Positions 30,198-50,463 of a stretch of DNA of 64,000 nucleotides are shown here, in pieces (the stretch's first letter is position 1; the number at the start of each line of letters is the position of its first letter). The stretch covers positions 1-64,000 of the forward strand of contig CALKCF010000001.1 in the NCBI GenBank assembly GCA_938083505.1. Direction: 5' to 3'. Source of the DNA: an uncultured archaeon. Its GTDB lineage: Archaea; Thermoproteota; Nitrososphaeria_A; Caldarchaeales; Wolframiiraptoraceae. The notes under the pieces were generated by a model, which saw only the letters and a program-made list of their open reading frames with translations, was not told the DNA's origin and ran no database searches. A program made the position numbers and the translations under genes.

Positions 30198-30752
30198 TCA
30201 TTCCAAGAAGATTACCTCATCGACCTTTTTCATTATTTTTTCAGTCAGCATCCTTTCCCTGAGAGTTATGCCGGAGCCCTTGTCATACTGAAGTTTAGTA
30301 CCATAGTAGGCCGTTCCCACGAATGTCTCGGAGACCTTTATGCATTTTTCAAGCAACTCAGGGTCGCCGGCGTGGAGGTAGATTGTGAGGTCGTTAATGA
30401 AGAGCAGTCTTGTAGGCTTGCCGAGGAATTTCTTCAATAAAGGTTCAATGGCTTCTCTGTTCTTCTCGGCTAACAACAGAACTTCCTCCTTCATCTTACC
30501 AGAAAGTCTTGGTGCAAAAACGTCCGTCGGTACTAGCAATCTAGTGCCGCTGATGTTACGCAAATAATCCGTCACCCTACCGCCGAACTCGCCGATCTTT
30601 TTTGGTGCTAACTCTATCAAAGTAACTTCGCTGGAAAGACCTCGCATGATCGCCTCCTCTAACAATTTAACGAGAAGCATAGTTTTGCCTGTTCCGGTAT
30701 CACCTGCTATCAGCACCTTCTTACCAAGCACCTTATCGAGTTTTAGCGCCAA
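30198..30752 (-). CDS. Uncharacterised P-loop NTPase
   Basis: Walker A GDTGTGKT and Walker B-like LFIND. Confidence 0.7.
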   Translation of the reverse strand: MALKLDKVLGKKVLIAGDTGTGKTMLLVKLLEEAIMRGLSSEVTLIELAPKKIGEFGGRVTDYLRNISGTRLLVPTDVFAPRLSGKMKEEVLLLAEKNREAIEPLLKKFLGKPTRLLFINDLTIYLHAGDPELLEKCIKVSETFVGTAYYGTKLQYDKGSGITLRERMLTEKIMKKVDEVIFLE

Positions 30753-42419: not shown

Positions 42420-42434
42420 GAAACGCTTAAATAA
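42420..42434 (+). promoter_or_regulatory. Putative BRE/TATA promoter of the aromatic biosynthesis operon
   Basis: GAAACGC followed by TTAAATA (42427-42433), about 25 nt upstream of the leader start region. Confidence 0.5.
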
Positions 42435-42457
42435 AAACGCATAATGCAATTTACTAA

Positions 42458-42588
42458 AGAGAGGCGGTGAACGTGAGGGATTGCCTTTTCTTCATGGCTG
42501 GCTATAGCTGGTATTGCTATAGCCAGCCAGACGCCTCTCTCTAAAGCTATCTTCTCCTTTTTGGGTTTTTGTGGCTTTGGAGGGAGGT
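42458..42588 (+). promoter_or_regulatory. Putative attenuator RNA with alternative helices
   Basis: 42458-42466 pairs with 42532-42540 (9 bp); 42495-42508 pairs with 42516-42529 (14 bp perfect); 42534-42547 pairs with 42574-42587, covering the lysC SD. Confidence 0.7.
42473..42544 (+). CDS. Putative aromatic-amino-acid leader peptide MRDCLFFMAGYSWYCYSQPDASL
   Basis: SD-like GGCGGTGA at 42463-42470, GTG start, TAA stop; 6 of 23 codons are Phe/Tyr/Trp; lies directly upstream of the shikimate operon. Confidence 0.7.
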   Translation: MRDCLFFMAGYSWYCYSQPDASL

Positions 42589-42595
42589 CATGTCT

Positions 42596-43813
42596 ATGAA
42601 AGATATAATAGTCGTAAAGCTTGGCGGCTCTGTCCTCCAAGACTCTAAGGCTCTTGAAAAGGCAGCGTCTTGGGTAAAGGATCTGCTAAAGGAACATGGA
42701 CTGGTGGTGGTGGTCTCAGCACTAAAGGGTATGACCGATGAGCTTTTGAAGATGGCTAAGGAGGTTAACCCAGAGGTTCGACCCGAAGTACTCGACGAAA
42801 TTTTGGCGATGGGTGAAAGGACGAGTGCTAGACTTTTCACTGCTGCGTTGAATAGGTTCGGCGTTGATGCTGTTTTGGTAGACCCATCCAACGATTACTG
42901 GCCTGTAATAACGGACGACGTACATTTTGACGCAAACCCCATCTATCACGAAACAGAGAAAAGATGTAAGGAGAAATTATTGCCATTGATTGAGGCTGGC
43001 AAAGTCCCTGTTGTGTGCGGATACATTGGTGTTAGTACCTCGGGTAAGATAACTACGTTAGGTAGGGGTGGTAGTGATACGACGGCCATACTGCTCGGTA
43101 GTTGTCTAAAAGCTGCGGAAGTTGTCTTAATTAAAGATGTTGAGGGTATATATTCAGGAGATCCAGATAAGGTCAGTAATGCTGAGATACTTGAGGTACT
43201 TAACGTAGATGAGGCCAGGTTGTTGACAGAAGGAGGCGCAAAGGTCATTCATTCAAAGGCATTAAGATACCTATCAGAAGGTCTCAGGTTAAGAGTGTCC
43301 AGTATGGAAAGCTTAGGAAGATCAGGAACCGTCATAATTGGCACCCTTCCAAAACTTGATGTTGTCAAACACCCGGCTAAAGCAACCATGATAACGATAC
43401 TTTCGAGAAACTCTAATGGTGTTTCGCTCGTTAAACTTGTCGTGGAGTTTGTCCAAAAACACAACGGAGAAATCCTCAACATAACGACTGATGAGAAATC
43501 CATCATAGTTTATACGAATTTAGATACCAATTTTATGGATAAGTTACATAAGGAGGTTGTAGAATCCGGTATGGGCAAGGCCATAAGCTTTTTCGAAAGG
43601 TTGTCTGCTATAACAATAAGCGGCAGGATGCTTGAAATAAGTCCGGGTGTAATACATAAAGTTGTAGAGCCGCTCGCACGACACGGCATAAATATCTATG
43701 GTTTGGTGACCATAAGCTCATCTATCAGAATATTCGTGTCCGCAAAAGATGCAGATAAGGCGACATATCTTATAAAAGCAAACTTGGAGGTGGAGTTGAA
43801 TGAAACAAATTAA
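42596..43813 (+). CDS. lysC: Aspartate kinase
   Basis: VVKLGGS, VVVSA..GMTD.L, GER.SA, TTLGRGGSDTTA, DVEGIYSGDP, GAKVIH; C-terminal ACT region. SD GGAGG at 42583-42587; ATG at 42590 or 42596. Confidence 0.93.
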   Translation: MKDIIVVKLGGSVLQDSKALEKAASWVKDLLKEHGLVVVVSALKGMTDELLKMAKEVNPEVRPEVLDEILAMGERTSARLFTAALNRFGVDAVLVDPSNDYWPVITDDVHFDANPIYHETEKRCKEKLLPLIEAGKVPVVCGYIGVSTSGKITTLGRGGSDTTAILLGSCLKAAEVVLIKDVEGIYSGDPDKVSNAEILEVLNVDEARLLTEGGAKVIHSKALRYLSEGLRLRVSSMESLGRSGTVIIGTLPKLDVVKHPAKATMITILSRNSNGVSLVKLVVEFVQKHNGEILNITTDEKSIIVYTNLDTNFMDKLHKEVVESGMGKAISFFERLSAITISGRMLEISPGVIHKVVEPLARHGINIYGLVTISSSIRIFVSAKDADKATYLIKANLEVELNETN

Positions 43814-44855
43814 AGTTGCGGTACTTGGAGCTACCGGAATGGTTGGTCAACGATATGTGAGCATGCTTTCGAGACATCCGTGGTTCAAGCTTTCATGTCT
43901 AACAGGGAAGGAGTCTGCCGGTAAGAAGTACGGCGAAGCAGTGAGGGGCAACCCGATCGACATCCCGTCTAGCGTAGCGGATATGGAAGTTTTACCTAAT
44001 GAGCCAAAGTACGTTGACGCAGATCTAGTATTCTCTCCACTACCAACCGAAGTTGCTCGCGAATCGGAGCCACTTTTTGCGCAAGAAGGTTTTCCCGTTG
44101 TGAGCGATGCTTCTGCTCATAGGATGGAGAAGGATGTCCCACTTATCGTACCTGAGATAAACCCGGAACATATAGAGTTAATAGACGTTCAGAAAAAGAA
44201 TAGAAAGTGGGATGGGTACATCGTAACCACACCAAACTGCACGACCATAGGTTTAATCATGCCCCTCAAACCACTACACGATGCTTACGTTCTCAAGAAA
44301 GTCGTGGTCACTACGATGCAAGCGGTCTCAGGTGCGGGCTTCCCAGGAGTACCATCGCTTTCCATACTTGGGAACGTTATACCATACATATCCGGTGAGG
44401 AAGATAAAGTGGAAAAAGAAACGCAGAAGATACTGGGGAAGTTCAAGAGTAACCATATAGAGCCCGCTCCTATAATCATTGAGGCCAGCTGCACCAGAGT
44501 TCCTACAATAGACGGACACCTAGAATCCGTGTATATTGAGACAGAGAAACCCGTGAACATAAACGATGCAAAAAAGGTGTTAGCAGAATTCAAAGGTCTT
44601 CCACAGGAGCAGGCTCTCCCTACAGCTCCTGATAAACCGATAATTGTCATGGAAGAGGAAGATAGGCCGCAACCAAGGCTTGACATATATGCTGGAAGTG
44701 TTCCGGGAATGAGTGCGGTCGTTGGGAGAGTAAGGTCTGCAAAAGACGAGAGAGCTCTGAAGTTCTTTGTTCTTAGCCATAATACGATAAGAGGTGCTGC
44801 CGGCATAGCAATACTGACAGCTGAGTTGCTACACGTATCCGGGAGGATAGAGTAA
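43800..44855 (+). CDS. asd: Aspartate-semialdehyde dehydrogenase
   Basis: LGATGMVGQ, PNCTT, QAVSGAG, CTRVP..DGH, HNTIRGAAG. Confidence 0.96.
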   Translation: MKQIKVAVLGATGMVGQRYVSMLSRHPWFKLSCLTGKESAGKKYGEAVRGNPIDIPSSVADMEVLPNEPKYVDADLVFSPLPTEVARESEPLFAQEGFPVVSDASAHRMEKDVPLIVPEINPEHIELIDVQKKNRKWDGYIVTTPNCTTIGLIMPLKPLHDAYVLKKVVVTTMQAVSGAGFPGVPSLSILGNVIPYISGEEDKVEKETQKILGKFKSNHIEPAPIIIEASCTRVPTIDGHLESVYIETEKPVNINDAKKVLAEFKGLPQEQALPTAPDKPIIVMEEEDRPQPRLDIYAGSVPGMSAVVGRVRSAKDERALKFFVLSHNTIRGAAGIAILTAELLHVSGRIE

Positions 44856-44857
44856 AC

Positions 44858-45655
44858 ATGGTTTTCGGAAAGCAGGTCAGGTTGAGTAGAATAACAGAAA
44901 AAGGAAAGATGCTTTGCATACCGATGGACCACGGTGTTACTATAGGGCCGGTCAAAGGCTTAGACAAGATATTTGATATAATAGAAAAGATTAGCTTTGG
45001 AGGAGCCACGGCCGTTTTGACACAAAAAGGTATACTGAGGATGATGCCCAAGCCCTTGAACGTTGGCACTATAATGCATGTCTCTGCAAGTACGTCATTA
45101 GGACCATCACCTAACTTCAAAGTGAGAGTTTCGAGTGTGGAAGAAGCCCTAAGGCTCGGAGCAGATGCTGTTTCCGTTCACGTTAATATAGGATGTAGTG
45201 ATGAGCCGAAGATGCTGAGAAAGCTTGGAATGCTTGCTGATGAGTGCGACGAATGGCAAGTACCGTTCATAGCGATGATGTATCCGAGGGGCGAGAACAT
45301 AAAGAATCCAAACGACCCTGAGATCGTAGCACATGTTGCAAGGATAGGTGCTGAGCTTGGAGCTGACATCGTAAAGACGCCCTACACAGGCACTCTGGAG
45401 ACATTTAGGAAGGTTGTGGATGGTTGCCCAGTTCCCATAGTCATAGCCGGTGGACCGAAAGCAGAGAGCGACCTAGAAGTTTTGAAGATGGTAAGGGAAG
45501 CTATGGACGCCGGCGCTATCGGCGCAGCAATAGGCAGGAACGTTTTTCAACATGATAATCCGTTTGCGATAACCAAAGCGCTCAGGGCCATAATAATTGA
45601 GGATTACACACTCAATGAGGCGCTGGAGGTGCTTAAGGACGCATCTACCAAGTAA
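44858..45655 (+). CDS. aroA': 2-amino-3,7-dideoxy-D-threo-hept-6-ulosonate (ADH) synthase, DhnA-type class I aldolase
   Basis: PMDHG...GP, LGADAVSVHVN.G, AMMYPRG, ELGADIVKT, IAGGPK, GRNVFQH; adjacent to DHQ synthase II. Confidence 0.88.
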   Translation: MVFGKQVRLSRITEKGKMLCIPMDHGVTIGPVKGLDKIFDIIEKISFGGATAVLTQKGILRMMPKPLNVGTIMHVSASTSLGPSPNFKVRVSSVEEALRLGADAVSVHVNIGCSDEPKMLRKLGMLADECDEWQVPFIAMMYPRGENIKNPNDPEIVAHVARIGAELGADIVKTPYTGTLETFRKVVDGCPVPIVIAGGPKAESDLEVLKMVREAMDAGAIGAAIGRNVFQHDNPFAITKALRAIIIEDYTLNEALEVLKDASTK

Positions 45656-46697
45656 AAAGGAGTTTTGCATAGATTTAAGAGACTGGAACGACGAAATCTT
45701 TAGAGAAGCTTTCTCGAGAGGGATTACTACATATTATTGTGATCCTACCAACATTCCACAAGAGCTTAGACAAAAGCTGACGATATACTCGGATTTGTCG
45801 ACCGGAGATGTCATTGTTATACCTCTCGGTAAAGAGGTACCGCAGGTGAGAAGGTTTGCGGTGTATGCTGTCGTGCTAAATTATAGCGATGTAGAGAAGT
45901 TAATCTCCGCGGTAAAGCTTGGCGCCGAGGCTTTGATAGTTGATGCTAAAGATTGGAAGATAATACCGTTAGAAAACATAATCGCATACCTGCAAAAAAC
46001 ATCCACGAAGCTTATGGCGAAGGTCGATAGCTTAGAGGAGATCGAAACTATGTACGGCATCTTGGAGAGAGGGGTTGATGTTGTCTTGTTTAAACCAAAG
46101 AGCAAAGAGGATGTTAGCAGAATATTTGAGGCGATCAGCTACATCGTAAGTGTTCAGCTAACTTCGGTGGAAGTTACAGAAGTCAAGGATGTAGGGATGG
46201 GGGATAGGGCATGTATCGATACGATATCTATTTTATCGATAGGGGAGGGCATGCTCGTTGGAAGTAAAGCAAGTTTTCTATTCCTCATTCACAGTGAATC
46301 GTTAGGTTCTTCGTTCACGGAACCAAGACCCTTCAGGGTAAATGCAGGTGCGATACATAGTTATGTTTTAACACCTACTGGTGGAACTAAGTACTTATCA
46401 GAGATAAAGGCAGGTGATAGAGTCCTGATAATTAACATGCAAGGCTCGGCAAGACCCGCCACAGTCGGCAGGGTTAAGATAGAGAGGAGGCCGATGAGAC
46501 TTATCAGGGCTGAGGCTAACGGTGAAGAGGGTACTGTTGTTTTGCAAAACGCTGAGACCATAAGGCTTATAGGACCAGACGGTAAGCCCGTCCCGGTAAC
46601 TGAAGTTAAACCTGGTGATAAAGTGTTAGCGTACATAAGCAGAGAGAAGGCTAGGCATTTCGGAGTGGCGATTGACGAATTCATAGTGGAGAAATAA
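45615..46697 (+). CDS. aroB': 3-dehydroquinate synthase II (start uncertain)
   Basis: DWKIIPLENIIA, LERGVD, GDRACID, GEGMLVGS, RPFRVNAG, GRVKIERRP, LQNAETI, RHFG. Confidence 0.93.
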   Translation: MRRWRCLRTHLPSKKEFCIDLRDWNDEIFREAFSRGITTYYCDPTNIPQELRQKLTIYSDLSTGDVIVIPLGKEVPQVRRFAVYAVVLNYSDVEKLISAVKLGAEALIVDAKDWKIIPLENIIAYLQKTSTKLMAKVDSLEEIETMYGILERGVDVVLFKPKSKEDVSRIFEAISYIVSVQLTSVEVTEVKDVGMGDRACIDTISILSIGEGMLVGSKASFLFLIHSESLGSSFTEPRPFRVNAGAIHSYVLTPTGGTKYLSEIKAGDRVLIINMQGSARPATVGRVKIERRPMRLIRAEANGEEGTVVLQNAETIRLIGPDGKPVPVTEVKPGDKVLAYISREKARHFGVAIDEFIVEK

Positions 46698-46728
46698 TTC
46701 TCGATTATTCATTGAAACTGGTGAAACG

Positions 46729-47436
46729 ATGTTTACGAGAGCAAAACTGTTCAAATTATGTGTATCGACATTTGGAAGAGACATACACTCTTTGAGAGAT
46801 TCTGTAGTTAAGGCAATAAGCGTTGGCGCAGACCTCGTAGAGGTTAGGCTTGATTATTTAGATGAATTGAACGTTAATGTTGTAAGCTCAACGCTAAAGC
46901 CTTACATGAATAGACTCGTGTTAACGCTCAGAGCGCATTATGAGAATGGACTATTTGAAGGTGATGAAAAGGAAAGAGCAGAAATCCTCAAACAATTGGG
47001 TCGGGAAGGTCCAGCGTATGTCGATATAGAGCTTCGTTCTCCTATGTTTCAGGACTTATCAAAAGAGTTGATGAAGGCAGGTACCGCTTTAATAGTTTCA
47101 TGGCATGACTTTGAGAAGACACTAGATACCGACACACTCAGAAGAATAGCCAATATGGCCATGATTGGTGGAAGTATTGCGAAAGTTGTAACTATGGCGA
47201 GATCTTTCAGCGATAACCTTAAGGTCCTCTCGCTATACCATACAGGCGATAAACACAGACTTGTAGCCTTCTGTATGGGAACAGAAGGTGTCTTATCTCG
47301 GTTTCTCTCGGTAATGTTGGGAGCACCCTTCATGTATGTCTCATTGCCTGGGGAGCCAACAGCACCCGGCCAACCCAGCATCACCGAAGCAAAGGAGATC
47401 TTCCGCATGCTTTCGTTAAGCTGTTGTGGAGAGTGA
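46729..47436 (+). CDS. aroD: Type I 3-dehydroquinate dehydratase
   Basis: ADLVEVRLD, TLR...E.G, YVDIE, IVSWHDF, AKVV, FCMG..G..SR, TAPGQ. Confidence 0.92.
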   Translation: MFTRAKLFKLCVSTFGRDIHSLRDSVVKAISVGADLVEVRLDYLDELNVNVVSSTLKPYMNRLVLTLRAHYENGLFEGDEKERAEILKQLGREGPAYVDIELRSPMFQDLSKELMKAGTALIVSWHDFEKTLDTDTLRRIANMAMIGGSIAKVVTMARSFSDNLKVLSLYHTGDKHRLVAFCMGTEGVLSRFLSVMLGAPFMYVSLPGEPTAPGQPSITEAKEIFRMLSLSCCGE

Positions 47437-48315
47437 TTGGGCATATCACCACAAACACGCTTCGGTAACAAAAGACTCATAGGCCTCATTGGACAACCGG
47501 TTAAGCATTCGATATCACCGGATATTCACAATGCTGCTTTTAACTATATGAACCTCGATTACTTTTACATCGCCTTTGATGTGAAGGAAAGGGCCTTAGG
47601 ACTTGCTGTTAAGGGTCTTAAGGCCCTAGGAGCTTTAGGTTTTAATGTAACGATACCATATAAGCAGAAGGTCGTGAAGTTCCTGGATAAACTTGTAGAC
47701 GATGCTAAAGTCCTAAAGACCGTAAATACTGTGGTGATCGAAAAAGATAGAATGATTGGGTACAATACAGATGTTTTAGGTATAATGAATACCCTGGTGC
47801 CTTACAAAGACGTAATAAGTGGTTGTGAAGCATTGATTCTTGGTGCAGGTGGAGGCGCTTCTGCCGCCGCCTTAGCCTTGGCCAGATTTGGTTGTAATCA
47901 CATAACGTTTGCTAACCGAACACTTTCAAGGGCCCGTAGGCTTGCGAACTTCCTACGTCAGAAGATTAAAATTTCTGCAGAGGGCATAGGTCTTTCGGCC
48001 AGCAACTTATCTGCAATTGCCAAAACTTGTGGTATTGTAATCAACGCGACACCCATCGGTATGTGGCCGAATAACAATAATTCATTGCTTAAAAAGGAAC
48101 AGATACGAAGTGGCTCTATAATAATGGATATGGTATACAATCCTTCTGAAACAGCACTCCTTAGAGAAGCAAAGCTTGCAGGTGCTATATGCGTCTCCGG
48201 ACTTGACATGTTGGTATTTCAGGCTGCAGAGTCCTTTAAATTATGGACATCCTTAGAGCCGCCGATAGAGGTTATGAAGGAGGTTGCCTTAGAGGCAATA
48301 GGTCGTTTTGTATGA
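47437..48315 (+). CDS. aroE: Shikimate dehydrogenase
   Basis: G.PVKHS.SP.IHN, GFNVTIPYK, VNT, GYNTD, GAGG, NRT, NATPIGM, DMVYNP. Confidence 0.95.
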   Translation: MGISPQTRFGNKRLIGLIGQPVKHSISPDIHNAAFNYMNLDYFYIAFDVKERALGLAVKGLKALGALGFNVTIPYKQKVVKFLDKLVDDAKVLKTVNTVVIEKDRMIGYNTDVLGIMNTLVPYKDVISGCEALILGAGGGASAAALALARFGCNHITFANRTLSRARRLANFLRQKIKISAEGIGLSASNLSAIAKTCGIVINATPIGMWPNNNNSLLKKEQIRSGSIIMDMVYNPSETALLREAKLAGAICVSGLDMLVFQAAESFKLWTSLEPPIEVMKEVALEAIGRFV

Positions 48316-49190
48316 AGGCGAGCGCTAGGGCGCACGGCGCTATAACGATCGTTAACGCCATATCGATTGGTAAAGGGGCGGCCATGGGTATCGATCTTTA
48401 TACAGAGGTCACTGTGGAGATAGGTGGTAAAGACATAGATGTGATGATAAAGGAAAACCCGGATGAGGATACAACACTAGCGAAGGTGGCGGTAAGCAAA
48501 GTCTTGAAGTTGGCACATATGAACTGCGGAGCTTATGTCGAAATCAGCTCAAACATACCAATCGGCAAGGGATTGAAGAGTTCCAGCGCAGCCGCCAATG
48601 CTATAGTTCTGGCTACGGCAAGGGCTGCGGATTTGAACTTGAATGATATTGAGATGTTAAATATAGCCGTTGACGCGGCAATAGAAGCTGGCGTTACCAT
48701 AACCGGTGCATATGACGATGCGTGTGCTAGCTATTATGGCGGCATAGTCATCACAGATAATTTGAAGAGGCAGATTGTGAGAAAGGATAAAGCTCCAGAA
48801 GACCTTTTTGTTATTTTGCTCGTCCCAGAATCAAAGAGTTATACTAAATTTTTTGATAAGAACGTACTTAAATCTATTGCATCATTTATTGAGGATGTAT
48901 ATAGCATGACTCTGAACGGGGAATATTGGAAAGCCCTGACACTTAACGGCATACTTCATTCGGTGGTGTTAAATTACGACGCGAAAAAAGCTATAAACGC
49001 TATGAAAGCAGGAGCTTTAGCTGCCGGTCTATCTGGAACCGGGCCCGCCATTGCCGCTGTATGTAGAAAAGATGCTTTGGACAACGTTGTCAATACATTA
49101 AGCGAAAAGAGATGTAAGCTCATAATAGCTAAACCGAATAACAAAAAAGCTTACTCATGGAGAGGTGGTCGTGTTGCAGGTTTCGATTAA
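48312..49190 (+). CDS. aroK: Archaeal GHMP-type shikimate kinase
   Basis: GAITIVNAI..GKG, IPIGKGLKSSSA, TGAYDDA, GLSGTGP; start at ATG 48312. Confidence 0.93.
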   Translation: MKASARAHGAITIVNAISIGKGAAMGIDLYTEVTVEIGGKDIDVMIKENPDEDTTLAKVAVSKVLKLAHMNCGAYVEISSNIPIGKGLKSSSAAANAIVLATARAADLNLNDIEMLNIAVDAAIEAGVTITGAYDDACASYYGGIVITDNLKRQIVRKDKAPEDLFVILLVPESKSYTKFFDKNVLKSIASFIEDVYSMTLNGEYWKALTLNGILHSVVLNYDAKKAINAMKAGALAAGLSGTGPAIAAVCRKDALDNVVNTLSEKRCKLIIAKPNNKKAYSWRGGRVAGFD

Positions 49191-50463
49191 ACCCTCAGTG
49201 ATATATGGTAGGGTACAAGCACCTCCCAGCAAAAGCTACAGCCATAGGGCTATAATAGCTGCCTCTATGTCAGATGGCGAATGTGTTGTAGAAAACGTTT
49301 CAAAATCCGATGATGTTCTTGCCACAATTAGTGCGTGTAAAAAATTTGGCACCTCAATAGTCGAAGAAGGTGATAAGCTCATCATCGACGGCCTCTCAAC
49401 ACCTAAGACACCAGAGGATGTTGTGAACGTTCAGAACTCGGGAACGACATTGAGGATAATGACTGGTATAAGTTGCTTAGTTCAAGACGGGTACGTAATA
49501 CTCACGGGCGATGAGAGTATAAGAAGAAGGCCAATGCAGCCACTCCTTGACGCCCTTAACATGCTTGGAGGGGAGTGCTGGTCTACAAGGCTTAATGGTT
49601 GCGCTCCCATTGTCGTTAAAGGTGGTGGATTAAAGGGTGGGAATGCCTGGATGAATGGTAAAGTATCTTCCCAGTTCGTATCATCCATACTGTTCTCATC
49701 ACCGAAGGCTACAAGCGATACGACGCTCACGATACAAGGAGATCTCGTATCAAAACCTTACGTTGACGCCACCATACATGTACTAGAACAGTTCAACATT
49801 CATATAGAAAGGGAAGGATACAAAGTATTTCGCATTGCTTCACAGCAGAATTTTAAGCCCACGCATTTTGTAGTGCCCGGAGATTTTGGGCTTGCCTCCT
49901 TCATGATGGCTGCAGCGCTTATTACAGATGGTTCAGTAAATGTTGAAGGGCTTAATCAAGAGTTACCGCAAGCCGATGCTGCCATAGTTGATATACTTAT
50001 CAAGATGGGGGCCAGCGTTAAGTTGGATTACAGTTCTAGGCGTGTAACAGTTAGTGGAGGTGGAAGGCTTAAGGGCGGTAGCTTTAACTTATCCGATTCT
50101 CCAGACCTTTTGCCAGTCTTAGCAGTCCTAGCTACCAAATGTGAAGGGACTGTTGAAATAACAGGTGTGGAACATGCAAGGTTTAAGGAAAGCGATAGGG
50201 TTAGTGCCCTTGCACATGCTCTTTCTATGATAGGAATGAATGTAAAAGAGATGCCGGAGGGATTAAGCATAACGCAAGGTAAATTGGTTAAGCATGCAGT
50301 ACTCGACTCAAAAGGTGACCATAGACTCTTCATGGCCTATTGTCTTTTAGGGCTCATCCTAGAAGAGGGGTGCACTATAGCGGGAGCAGAGTGCATGAAC
50401 GTATCTTATCCGAATTTTCTTAGAGACCTTGCTAGTTTAGGTGCAAAAATTGAGCTCATATAA
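49165..50463 (+). CDS. aroA: EPSP synthase (3-phosphoshikimate 1-carboxyvinyltransferase)
   Basis: PPSKSYSHRA, NSGTTLR, RRPM, SSQFVS, KESDR, DHR, SYP.F. Confidence 0.96.
   Translation: MVVLQVSIKPSVIYGRVQAPPSKSYSHRAIIAASMSDGECVVENVSKSDDVLATISACKKFGTSIVEEGDKLIIDGLSTPKTPEDVVNVQNSGTTLRIMTGISCLVQDGYVILTGDESIRRRPMQPLLDALNMLGGECWSTRLNGCAPIVVKGGGLKGGNAWMNGKVSSQFVSSILFSSPKATSDTTLTIQGDLVSKPYVDATIHVLEQFNIHIEREGYKVFRIASQQNFKPTHFVVPGDFGLASFMMAAALITDGSVNVEGLNQELPQADAAIVDILIKMGASVKLDYSSRRVTVSGGGRLKGGSFNLSDSPDLLPVLAVLATKCEGTVEITGVEHARFKESDRVSALAHALSMIGMNVKEMPEGLSITQGKLVKHAVLDSKGDHRLFMAYCLLGLILEEGCTIAGAECMNVSYPNFLRDLASLGAKIELI

Follow-up and report, generated by a model that had tools for sequence, protein, structure and literature searches.

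A conserved aromatic-rich leader ORF with a candidate +1 frameshift cassette upstream of an archaeal lysC-aro operon

How amino-acid biosynthesis is tuned in archaea without known repressors is largely an open question, and it is raised by one locus in the 64,000-nt stretch of DNA analysed here (the window), where a short ORF dense in aromatic codons stands just upstream of an aromatic-amino-acid operon. Is this ORF a sensor of aromatic supply and, if it is, by what route could its translation reach the first gene of the operon?

The leader ORF and its conservation

The original prediction described a short, SD-led ORF with six Phe, Tyr or Trp codons among 11, lying downstream of a TATA-like box and ending about 50 nt before an eight-gene operon, and the sequence bears out each part of this description (Table 1). 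The SD-like element occupies 42463-42470, the aromatic codons are numbers 6, 7, 11, 13, 14 and 16, and the gap to lysC is 45 nt to the ATG at 42590 or 51 nt to the ATG at 42596, which has the better SD spacing. Transcription is predicted to start at about 42457-42459, judged by the TATA-to-ATG spacing of apparently leaderless genes in relatives. The genes run from lysC to aroA, with aroC, pheA and the trp genes located outside this lysC-asd-aro operon, and the nearest named relatives are Candidatus Terraquivivens species (LysC identity 87-88%). Both genomes of genus g11 (L008 and L010; G050 and G060) have one in-frame TGA within their ADH synthase match.

Table 1. Features of the leader region, its operon and the hisG leader of the same genome (window positions except in the last row)
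Feature	Position	Strand	Remarks
BRE and TATA box	42420..42433	+	kept in 7/7 Terraquivivens
Segment 1	42458..42470	+	purine-rich 5' end with the leader SD; can pair with 42532-42539
Leader ORF	42473..42544	+	23 codons, GTG start to TAA 42542-42544; sequence and 7-species comparison
Putative +1 frameshift cassette	42473..42490	+	internal SD-like 42473-42481, 3-nt spacer, P-site CTT 42485-42487, Phe TTC 42488-42490
Open +1 frame	42486..42599	+	37 codons, ends at TGA 42597-42599 overlapping lysC ATG 42596
Inner hairpin	42495..42529	+	14 bp here, 8-bp core conserved, Trp13-Tyr14 in loop
Segment 3	42532..42551	+	anti-SD including the leader stop codon; partners are segment 1 or the lysC SD
Segment 4	42570..42589	+	lysC SD, locked in helix 3:4 around a U-rich loop
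lysC, aspartate kinase	42590..43813	+	first operon gene; start 42596 or 42590
asd, ADH synthase, DHQ synthase II, aroD, aroE, aroK, aroA	43800..50463	+	
hisG leader	G000 C6 ~30250-30360 (L037)	-	cassette with His codon

Taken singly, the leader is only about a 1-in-100 to 1-in-200 event and thus modestly unusual: among 1488 short ORFs in the intergenic DNA of this genome, 7 hold at least six aromatic codons in 11, and at least five occur in 29 of 445 free upstream regions, 3 of those 29 with an SD. Consequently, the case rests on conservation. The original prediction had proposed looking for a conserved aromatic-rich short ORF in relatives, and such leaders are present in 11 of the 13 genera of the order. 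A strict rule (at least five aromatics in 11 codons plus a canonical start) is satisfied in 9 of 13 genera against a 6.5% background, and two further genera fall just short of it, one with four aromatics and one with an ATA/ACG start; the leader of genus g7 is a short form with one Tyr. A start-to-stop aromatic-rich ORF lies some 40-60 nt upstream of lysC in genera g1, g3, g5, g11, g12 and g13, precedes ADH synthase in g2 (8/8), and precedes asd in g6, g9, g14 and g15. Across these loci the leader is shown to be tied to the operon head and to be retained when the first gene changes between lysC, asd and ADH synthase.

In genus g8, no leader was found before asd in 11 genomes. At eight of its loci (L013-L015, L020, L021, L024-L026), lysC is separated from the aro genes and asd is apparently leaderless; at the detached lysC the leader is gone in five genomes, and Phe/Tyr-ending remnants lacking an SD persist in three. 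Nor was a leader found at about 50 ADH-synthase loci, mostly of ammonia oxidisers, where ADH synthase may not be the operon head in every case; two of them meet the aromatic threshold, neither with a strong SD. Where lysC has been lost, in g2 (L043-L049, L113; asd lost as well) and g14 (L078, L090), an SD and ATG are retained 39-50 nt past the leader stop and start a short relay ORF that terminates near or within the next gene. Outside the order, aromatic leaders precede lysC in Bathyarchaeia (L163-L165, L168) and Jordarchaeia (L162), the latter having a TTT TTC site whose +1 frame stays open as far as -9.

The enrichment is specific to the reading frame. Among 42 distinct leader peptides, Phe, Tyr and Trp make up 14.5, 13.4 and 3.9% of residues, compared with 4.0, 3.6 and 1.0% of the proteome, and the last 14 codons hold 4-8.4 aromatics in frame compared with 0-2.4 in the other frames (3.9 in one genus). 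In g6, where the internal start has been lost, an in-frame ATG arises at the predicted transcript start and the frame is kept. Within Terraquivivens, whose leaders are about 91% identical, Phe6, Tyr11, Tyr14 and Tyr16 are invariant across seven species. The original caution that two Tyr codons sit in an inverted repeat is right in that Tyr11 and Tyr16 do lie inside the 14-bp repeat (42495-42508 with 42516-42529), and it is partly answered by one species, in which Tyr11 is kept through a synonymous change that disrupts a stem pair. The proposal that the leader integrates Phe, Tyr and Trp supply is not supported by the comparison as it stands. Codon 7 is Phe solely in this genome and Leu in 6/7 species, and codon 13, which is Trp or Tyr throughout, is Tyr in 5/7; neither Trp sensing nor the Phe-Phe pair is conserved within the genus. 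We regard translation of the leader, with sensing of the aromatic supply by one route or another, as highly likely, and it very probably senses Phe and Tyr supply.

The putative slip cassette and the +1 frame

The original reading overlooked a putative +1 slip cassette at the start of the leader and an open +1 frame that ends on the lysC start. Codons 2 to 6 are AGG GAT TGC CTT TTC, in which the putative A-site codon is a Phe sense codon and not a stop. The internal SD-like element pairs with the anti-SD at -7.4 kcal/mol, for which a 1-nt bulge is needed (-4.9 to -9.1 kcal/mol in relatives), and the CTT TTC slip site at 42485-42490 is present in 7/7 Terraquivivens. Compared with the commonest form, the focal cassette lacks one codon, and its pattern precedes 6 of 1122 genes of this genome; it is also part of a conserved hairpin that covers the start codon, and this pairing could account for the cassette's conservation. 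The distance from Phe6 (42488) to Tyr16 (42518) is exactly 30 nt, close to the footprint of one ribosome, and on a speculative note a ribosome stalled at Tyr16 could queue a following ribosome on the slip site.

The +1 frame here runs through both hairpins of the leader RNA. It is open in all seven Terraquivivens species, compared with 1.9 expected from dinucleotide shuffles and 4.8 from codon shuffles; under the codon-shuffle null (7 vs 4.8) this is weak evidence within the genus, and the seven are closely related. The frame ends on the lysC AUG in four species and 56 nt inside lysC in the other three, in which a 1-nt shorter spacer shifts the stop to +56.

The same cassette occurs in about 30 other archaeal lysC-aro leaders. 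Among a discovery set of 10 relatives with a related G-D/G-x-L/V-Y cassette, seven have their +1 stop at +1 or +4 relative to where lysC starts, and in three (family f3) lysC itself is the +1 frame and has no ATG, GTG or TTG. We then fixed the cassette pattern and applied it out of sample to newly fetched loci, 22 of which carried it; a scan for further loci by lysC alignment returned mostly unrelated bacterial genes. All 22 loci have an open +1 frame of 18-52 codons, where dinucleotide shuffles predict 6.3 such loci; an open -1 frame occurs in 3 (5.7 expected). The +1 frame either stops between -16 and +23 relative to the lysC start or continues into lysC as a fusion, and two of the fusions are start-less. 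These loci are kin and no tree was built, so the counts overstate their independence; collapsed by eye to 16 clusters, they still give a joint null probability near 1e-10. Three of the 22 (L303-L305) have a TGA directly before the CTT slip codon in an otherwise intact cassette with an open +1 frame, two others lack a canonical start, and the remaining 17 all comply.

A codon-blind motif search found NTT as the P-site codon in 24/24 cassette matches; in these lysC genes, Leu is encoded by CTT in 21% of cases and Val by GTT in 27%. Seven more loci have the exact spacing seen in the window (AGG, two codons, NTT, then Phe or Tyr), all with a +1 frame open to between -21 and +23. At L079-L081 (f3), L323, L326 and L283, the +1 frame of a short leader is lysC itself, and an ATG, GTG or TTG start is absent at L079-L081, L323 and L326; in f3, lysC could alternatively start at an ATA.

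Many leaders of the order have no cassette. Taking all of them together, the +1 frame is open in 47 of 57, compared with 40.5 expected from codon shuffles, and it is closed in 4/8 leaders of g5 and 2/3 of g3. Frameshifting is thus not universal in the order's leaders, and with this degree of openness we make no claim for those that lack the cassette.

A parallel case comes from histidine synthesis. The hisG leaders of all seven Terraquivivens species share the cassette design, with His as the A-site codon and CTT and GTT interchanged; the hisG loci with this cassette are L037, L344, L348, L351, L352, L354, L355, L353 and L362. The +1 stop lies at +10 in 6/7 Terraquivivens, at -19 in this genome, and at +5 and +1 in two other genera. 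Because the hisG leaders share the design but carry His, the hungry codon is shown, by comparison within one genus, to track the pathway product: Phe or Tyr for aro and His for his. Elsewhere in the genome, leuA (G000 C7 48060-48205) and ilvB (C7 49760-49926) have structured leaders with 5-codon SD-led ORFs that place Leu or Ile at codon 4; there it is the -1 and not the +1 frame that is open to the gene start.

Leader RNA structure and routes to lysC

The leader folds much more stably than shuffled sequences (z-score -7.6), and the leader ORF overlaps two mutually exclusive helices. Helix 1:3 joins 42459-42466 to 42532-42539 (8/8 pairs invariant in seven species, -17 to -18 kcal/mol); helix 3:4 joins 42533-42547 to 42574-42588 (15 bp, 100% paired in seven species, -29.3 kcal/mol here) and sequesters the lysC SD by default, as in leaders of the ermC/cat type, with the U-rich tract after the leader stop forming its loop. 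There are no two-sided changes in these helices among the seven Terraquivivens species, which makes covariation uninformative there; in family f2, it is modest, with the outer helix misaligned between genera. The cognate 1:3 duplex beats shuffles and other-genus partners in eight genera, weakly in two of them. Both 1:3 and 3:4 beat such partners in g1, g11 and g12, and in g13 helix 3:4 does so clearly and 1:3 weakly. Genera g2, g3 and g5 have a different layout, with a strong 1:2 helix and a hairpin holding the stop in its loop; in this genus, helix 1:2 is no better than shuffles. The inner hairpin may act as a pause element 3' of the slip site.

A terminator scan found no intrinsic terminator (hairpin plus U run) before lysC, and an Rfam covariance-model scan of the leader gave no match up to an E-value of 5 (Phe_leader, Trp_leader, His_leader and others). 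The absence of a terminator and the sequestration of the lysC SD in a hairpin make the control of lysC look translational. The original attribution to a ribosome-mediated attenuator therefore stands in one part, a conserved SD-led aromatic leader that very probably senses charged tRNA, and falls in the other, since the missing terminator and a structure aimed at the lysC SD do not fit transcription attenuation of the trpL/pheL type.

By what route would translation of the leader open this hairpin? In calculations on the full-length RNA, helix 3:4 has a probability of 0.96 or more in every ribosome state except a ribosome at the stop. Since 3:4 wins even when the ribosome is stalled at aromatic codons, stalling alone does not open the hairpin. 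A simple equilibrium attenuator was accordingly rejected, as ribosome walks along 44 leaders gave no consistent ON signal at aromatic codons. On nascent RNA ending before the SD, helix 1:3 has a probability of 0.95 or more with the ribosome at codons 6-16, and is absent with the ribosome on segment 1 or at the leader stop. A stall switch is thus possible only kinetically, during transcription.

The reading we prefer is that the translated leader sets initiation at lysC, and hence expression of the tightly packed aro operon, according to the supply of aromatic aminoacyl-tRNA. With enough Phe-tRNA, the ribosome would terminate at the leader stop and the hairpin would remain shut (OFF). When Phe-tRNA is short, the ribosome would wait with an empty A site until, by a prfB-like slip, the Leu-tRNA moves from CUU onto UUU; the shifted ribosome would read through the hairpin and then reinitiate at lysC (ON). 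Slipping is not open to the conserved Tyr/Trp codons 11-16, which probably add a stall-dependent route via helix 1:3 in the nascent transcript. A further contribution might come from aCPSF1/FttA-mediated polarity on messages left untranslated. We judge this combination of a Phe-shortage +1 slip, hairpin melting and reinitiation with an added Tyr/Trp stall route to be probable. Somewhat less firmly, we favour the wider description of the Terraquivivens leader as a hybrid of a Phe frameshift sensor and a Tyr/Trp stall switch, belonging to a widespread, undescribed archaeal family of hungry-codon +1 sensors that act by reinitiation or fusion. Comparative support for the hungry-codon frameshift is strong in the leader family as a whole; for the Terraquivivens copy, it is good but incomplete. 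Reinitiation requires near-overlap of stop and start (PMC10666635), and the +1 stop at +56 in three of the seven species would be too far for it, so that hairpin melting alone would remain there. In addition, termination at the normal leader stop transiently opens the hairpin as well, which for the model is leakage in the wrong direction.

The strongest rival dispenses with functional frameshifting in the genus and treats the cassette as a relic. A ribosome stalled at codons 6-16 would leave segment 1 uncovered, so that it could bind the anti-SD ahead of synthesis of the lysC SD (ON), whereas one reaching the stop would strip 1:3, and 3:4 would then close (OFF). The SD-less transcripts behave as this scheme expects; four genera whose sequences are unrelated show cognate-specific pairing in both 1:3 and 3:4; the invariant Tyr codons are non-slippery; and the helices are kept in genera without a cassette, with compensatory changes in f2. 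However, helix 3:4 (-29) beats 1:3 (-17 to -18) at equilibrium, which confines the scheme to kinetics, and ribosome-free nascent RNA forms 1:3 too, and the walk shows no contrast between stalled and free states. It also leaves the cassette, the open frame and the parallel His leader unexplained, and we consider it unlikely as the whole account.

Far less probable is control at the level of transcription, either by trpL/pheL-like attenuation or by ribosome-gated aCPSF1/FttA cleavage in the U-rich loop at 42552-42569. In most homologs a U-rich tract does follow the leader stop, and archaeal transcription ends at poly(U) with the aid of aCPSF1 (PMC8116511), but the hairpin-plus-U terminator is absent and the conserved pairing targets the SD. 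Genus g2, moreover, keeps an SD and ATG at the same distance after losing lysC and asd, and initiation is therefore likely to be the controlled step.

The weakest alternative, slightly less probable again, is that nothing is sensed and that a structured 5' UTR with U-rich stretches reads as Phe and Tyr by chance or provides a fixed-level leader: Tyr11 and Tyr16 do lie in stem arms, leaders of the genus share about 91% identity, and g8 and the ammonia oxidisers manage without one, but the aromatic enrichment is frame-specific with Phe, Tyr and Trp each at about four times the genome level, start codons turn over in g6 while the frame persists, and the hungry codon matches the pathway.

Comparison with known systems

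In its parts, the leader resembles those of E. coli trpL, pheL and hisL: a short SD-led ORF with pathway codons at an operon head, overlapped by alternative helices. Unlike them, it is archaeal, has no intrinsic terminator, acts on the SD of the first gene, and uses helix 1:3 rather than 2:3. Frameshifting has been described in pheL, as incidental (PMC5009743), and according to a 2016 review no hungry-codon frameshift yielding starvation-specific products was known (PMC5009743). The closest counterpart of the cassette is bacterial prfB (RF2), in which a CUU_U slip site follows an internal SD-like element ending 3 nt upstream and A-site decoding is slow (PMC5009743); the cassette shares the slip site, the SD spacing and, as proposed here, a slow-A-site signal. 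The prfB A site is UGA, whereas the leader cassettes present a Phe, Tyr or His sense codon, and, unlike the prfB fusion, a shifted leader ribosome would mostly stop at the start of the next gene, with fusion in some relatives.

For the downstream step, ermCL-ermC offers a precedent: ketolide-induced frameshifted ribosomes enter the spacer, unfold the SD-sequestering structure and allow downstream initiation (PMC5009743). The proposed leader would likewise unfold an SD hairpin by frameshifting. The ermCL-ermC system is bacterial and triggered by an antibiotic, whereas the trigger proposed here is a shortage of aminoacyl-tRNA. We know of no internal-SD cassette in ermCL-ermC. Control codons in a short ORF also govern an operon in the mycobacterial polycysteine attenuators, which are in this respect like the proposed leader sensor; these are reportedly leaderless and Cys-specific and are said to stall and unfold without a change of frame. 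In Methanothermobacter, a Met-Trp minigene before trpY is said to have been proposed as a sensor.

Archaeal recoding is known from a -1 frameshift in S. solfataricus fucA1 and from haloviral frameshifts, with one viral +1 event predicted (PMC8211752); reviews state that only -1 frameshifting has been shown in archaeal cells (PMC8211752). Unlike the event proposed for the leader, these frameshifts lie inside genes, are mostly -1 and are not nutrient sensors. Our literature search, which lay outside most subscription journals, found no archaeal leader-peptide sensor, and the literature searched held no experimental description of such a frameshift switch in archaea; papers on ribosome profiling in archaea do mention uORFs, though not a sensor of this kind.

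If the proposed mechanism is true, hungry-codon frameshifting would be no error but a means of sensing favoured by selection, archaeal ribosomes would exploit pairing with internal SDs while elongating, and, among biosynthetic genes that appear to lack a start, some would be intact and expressed via recoding.
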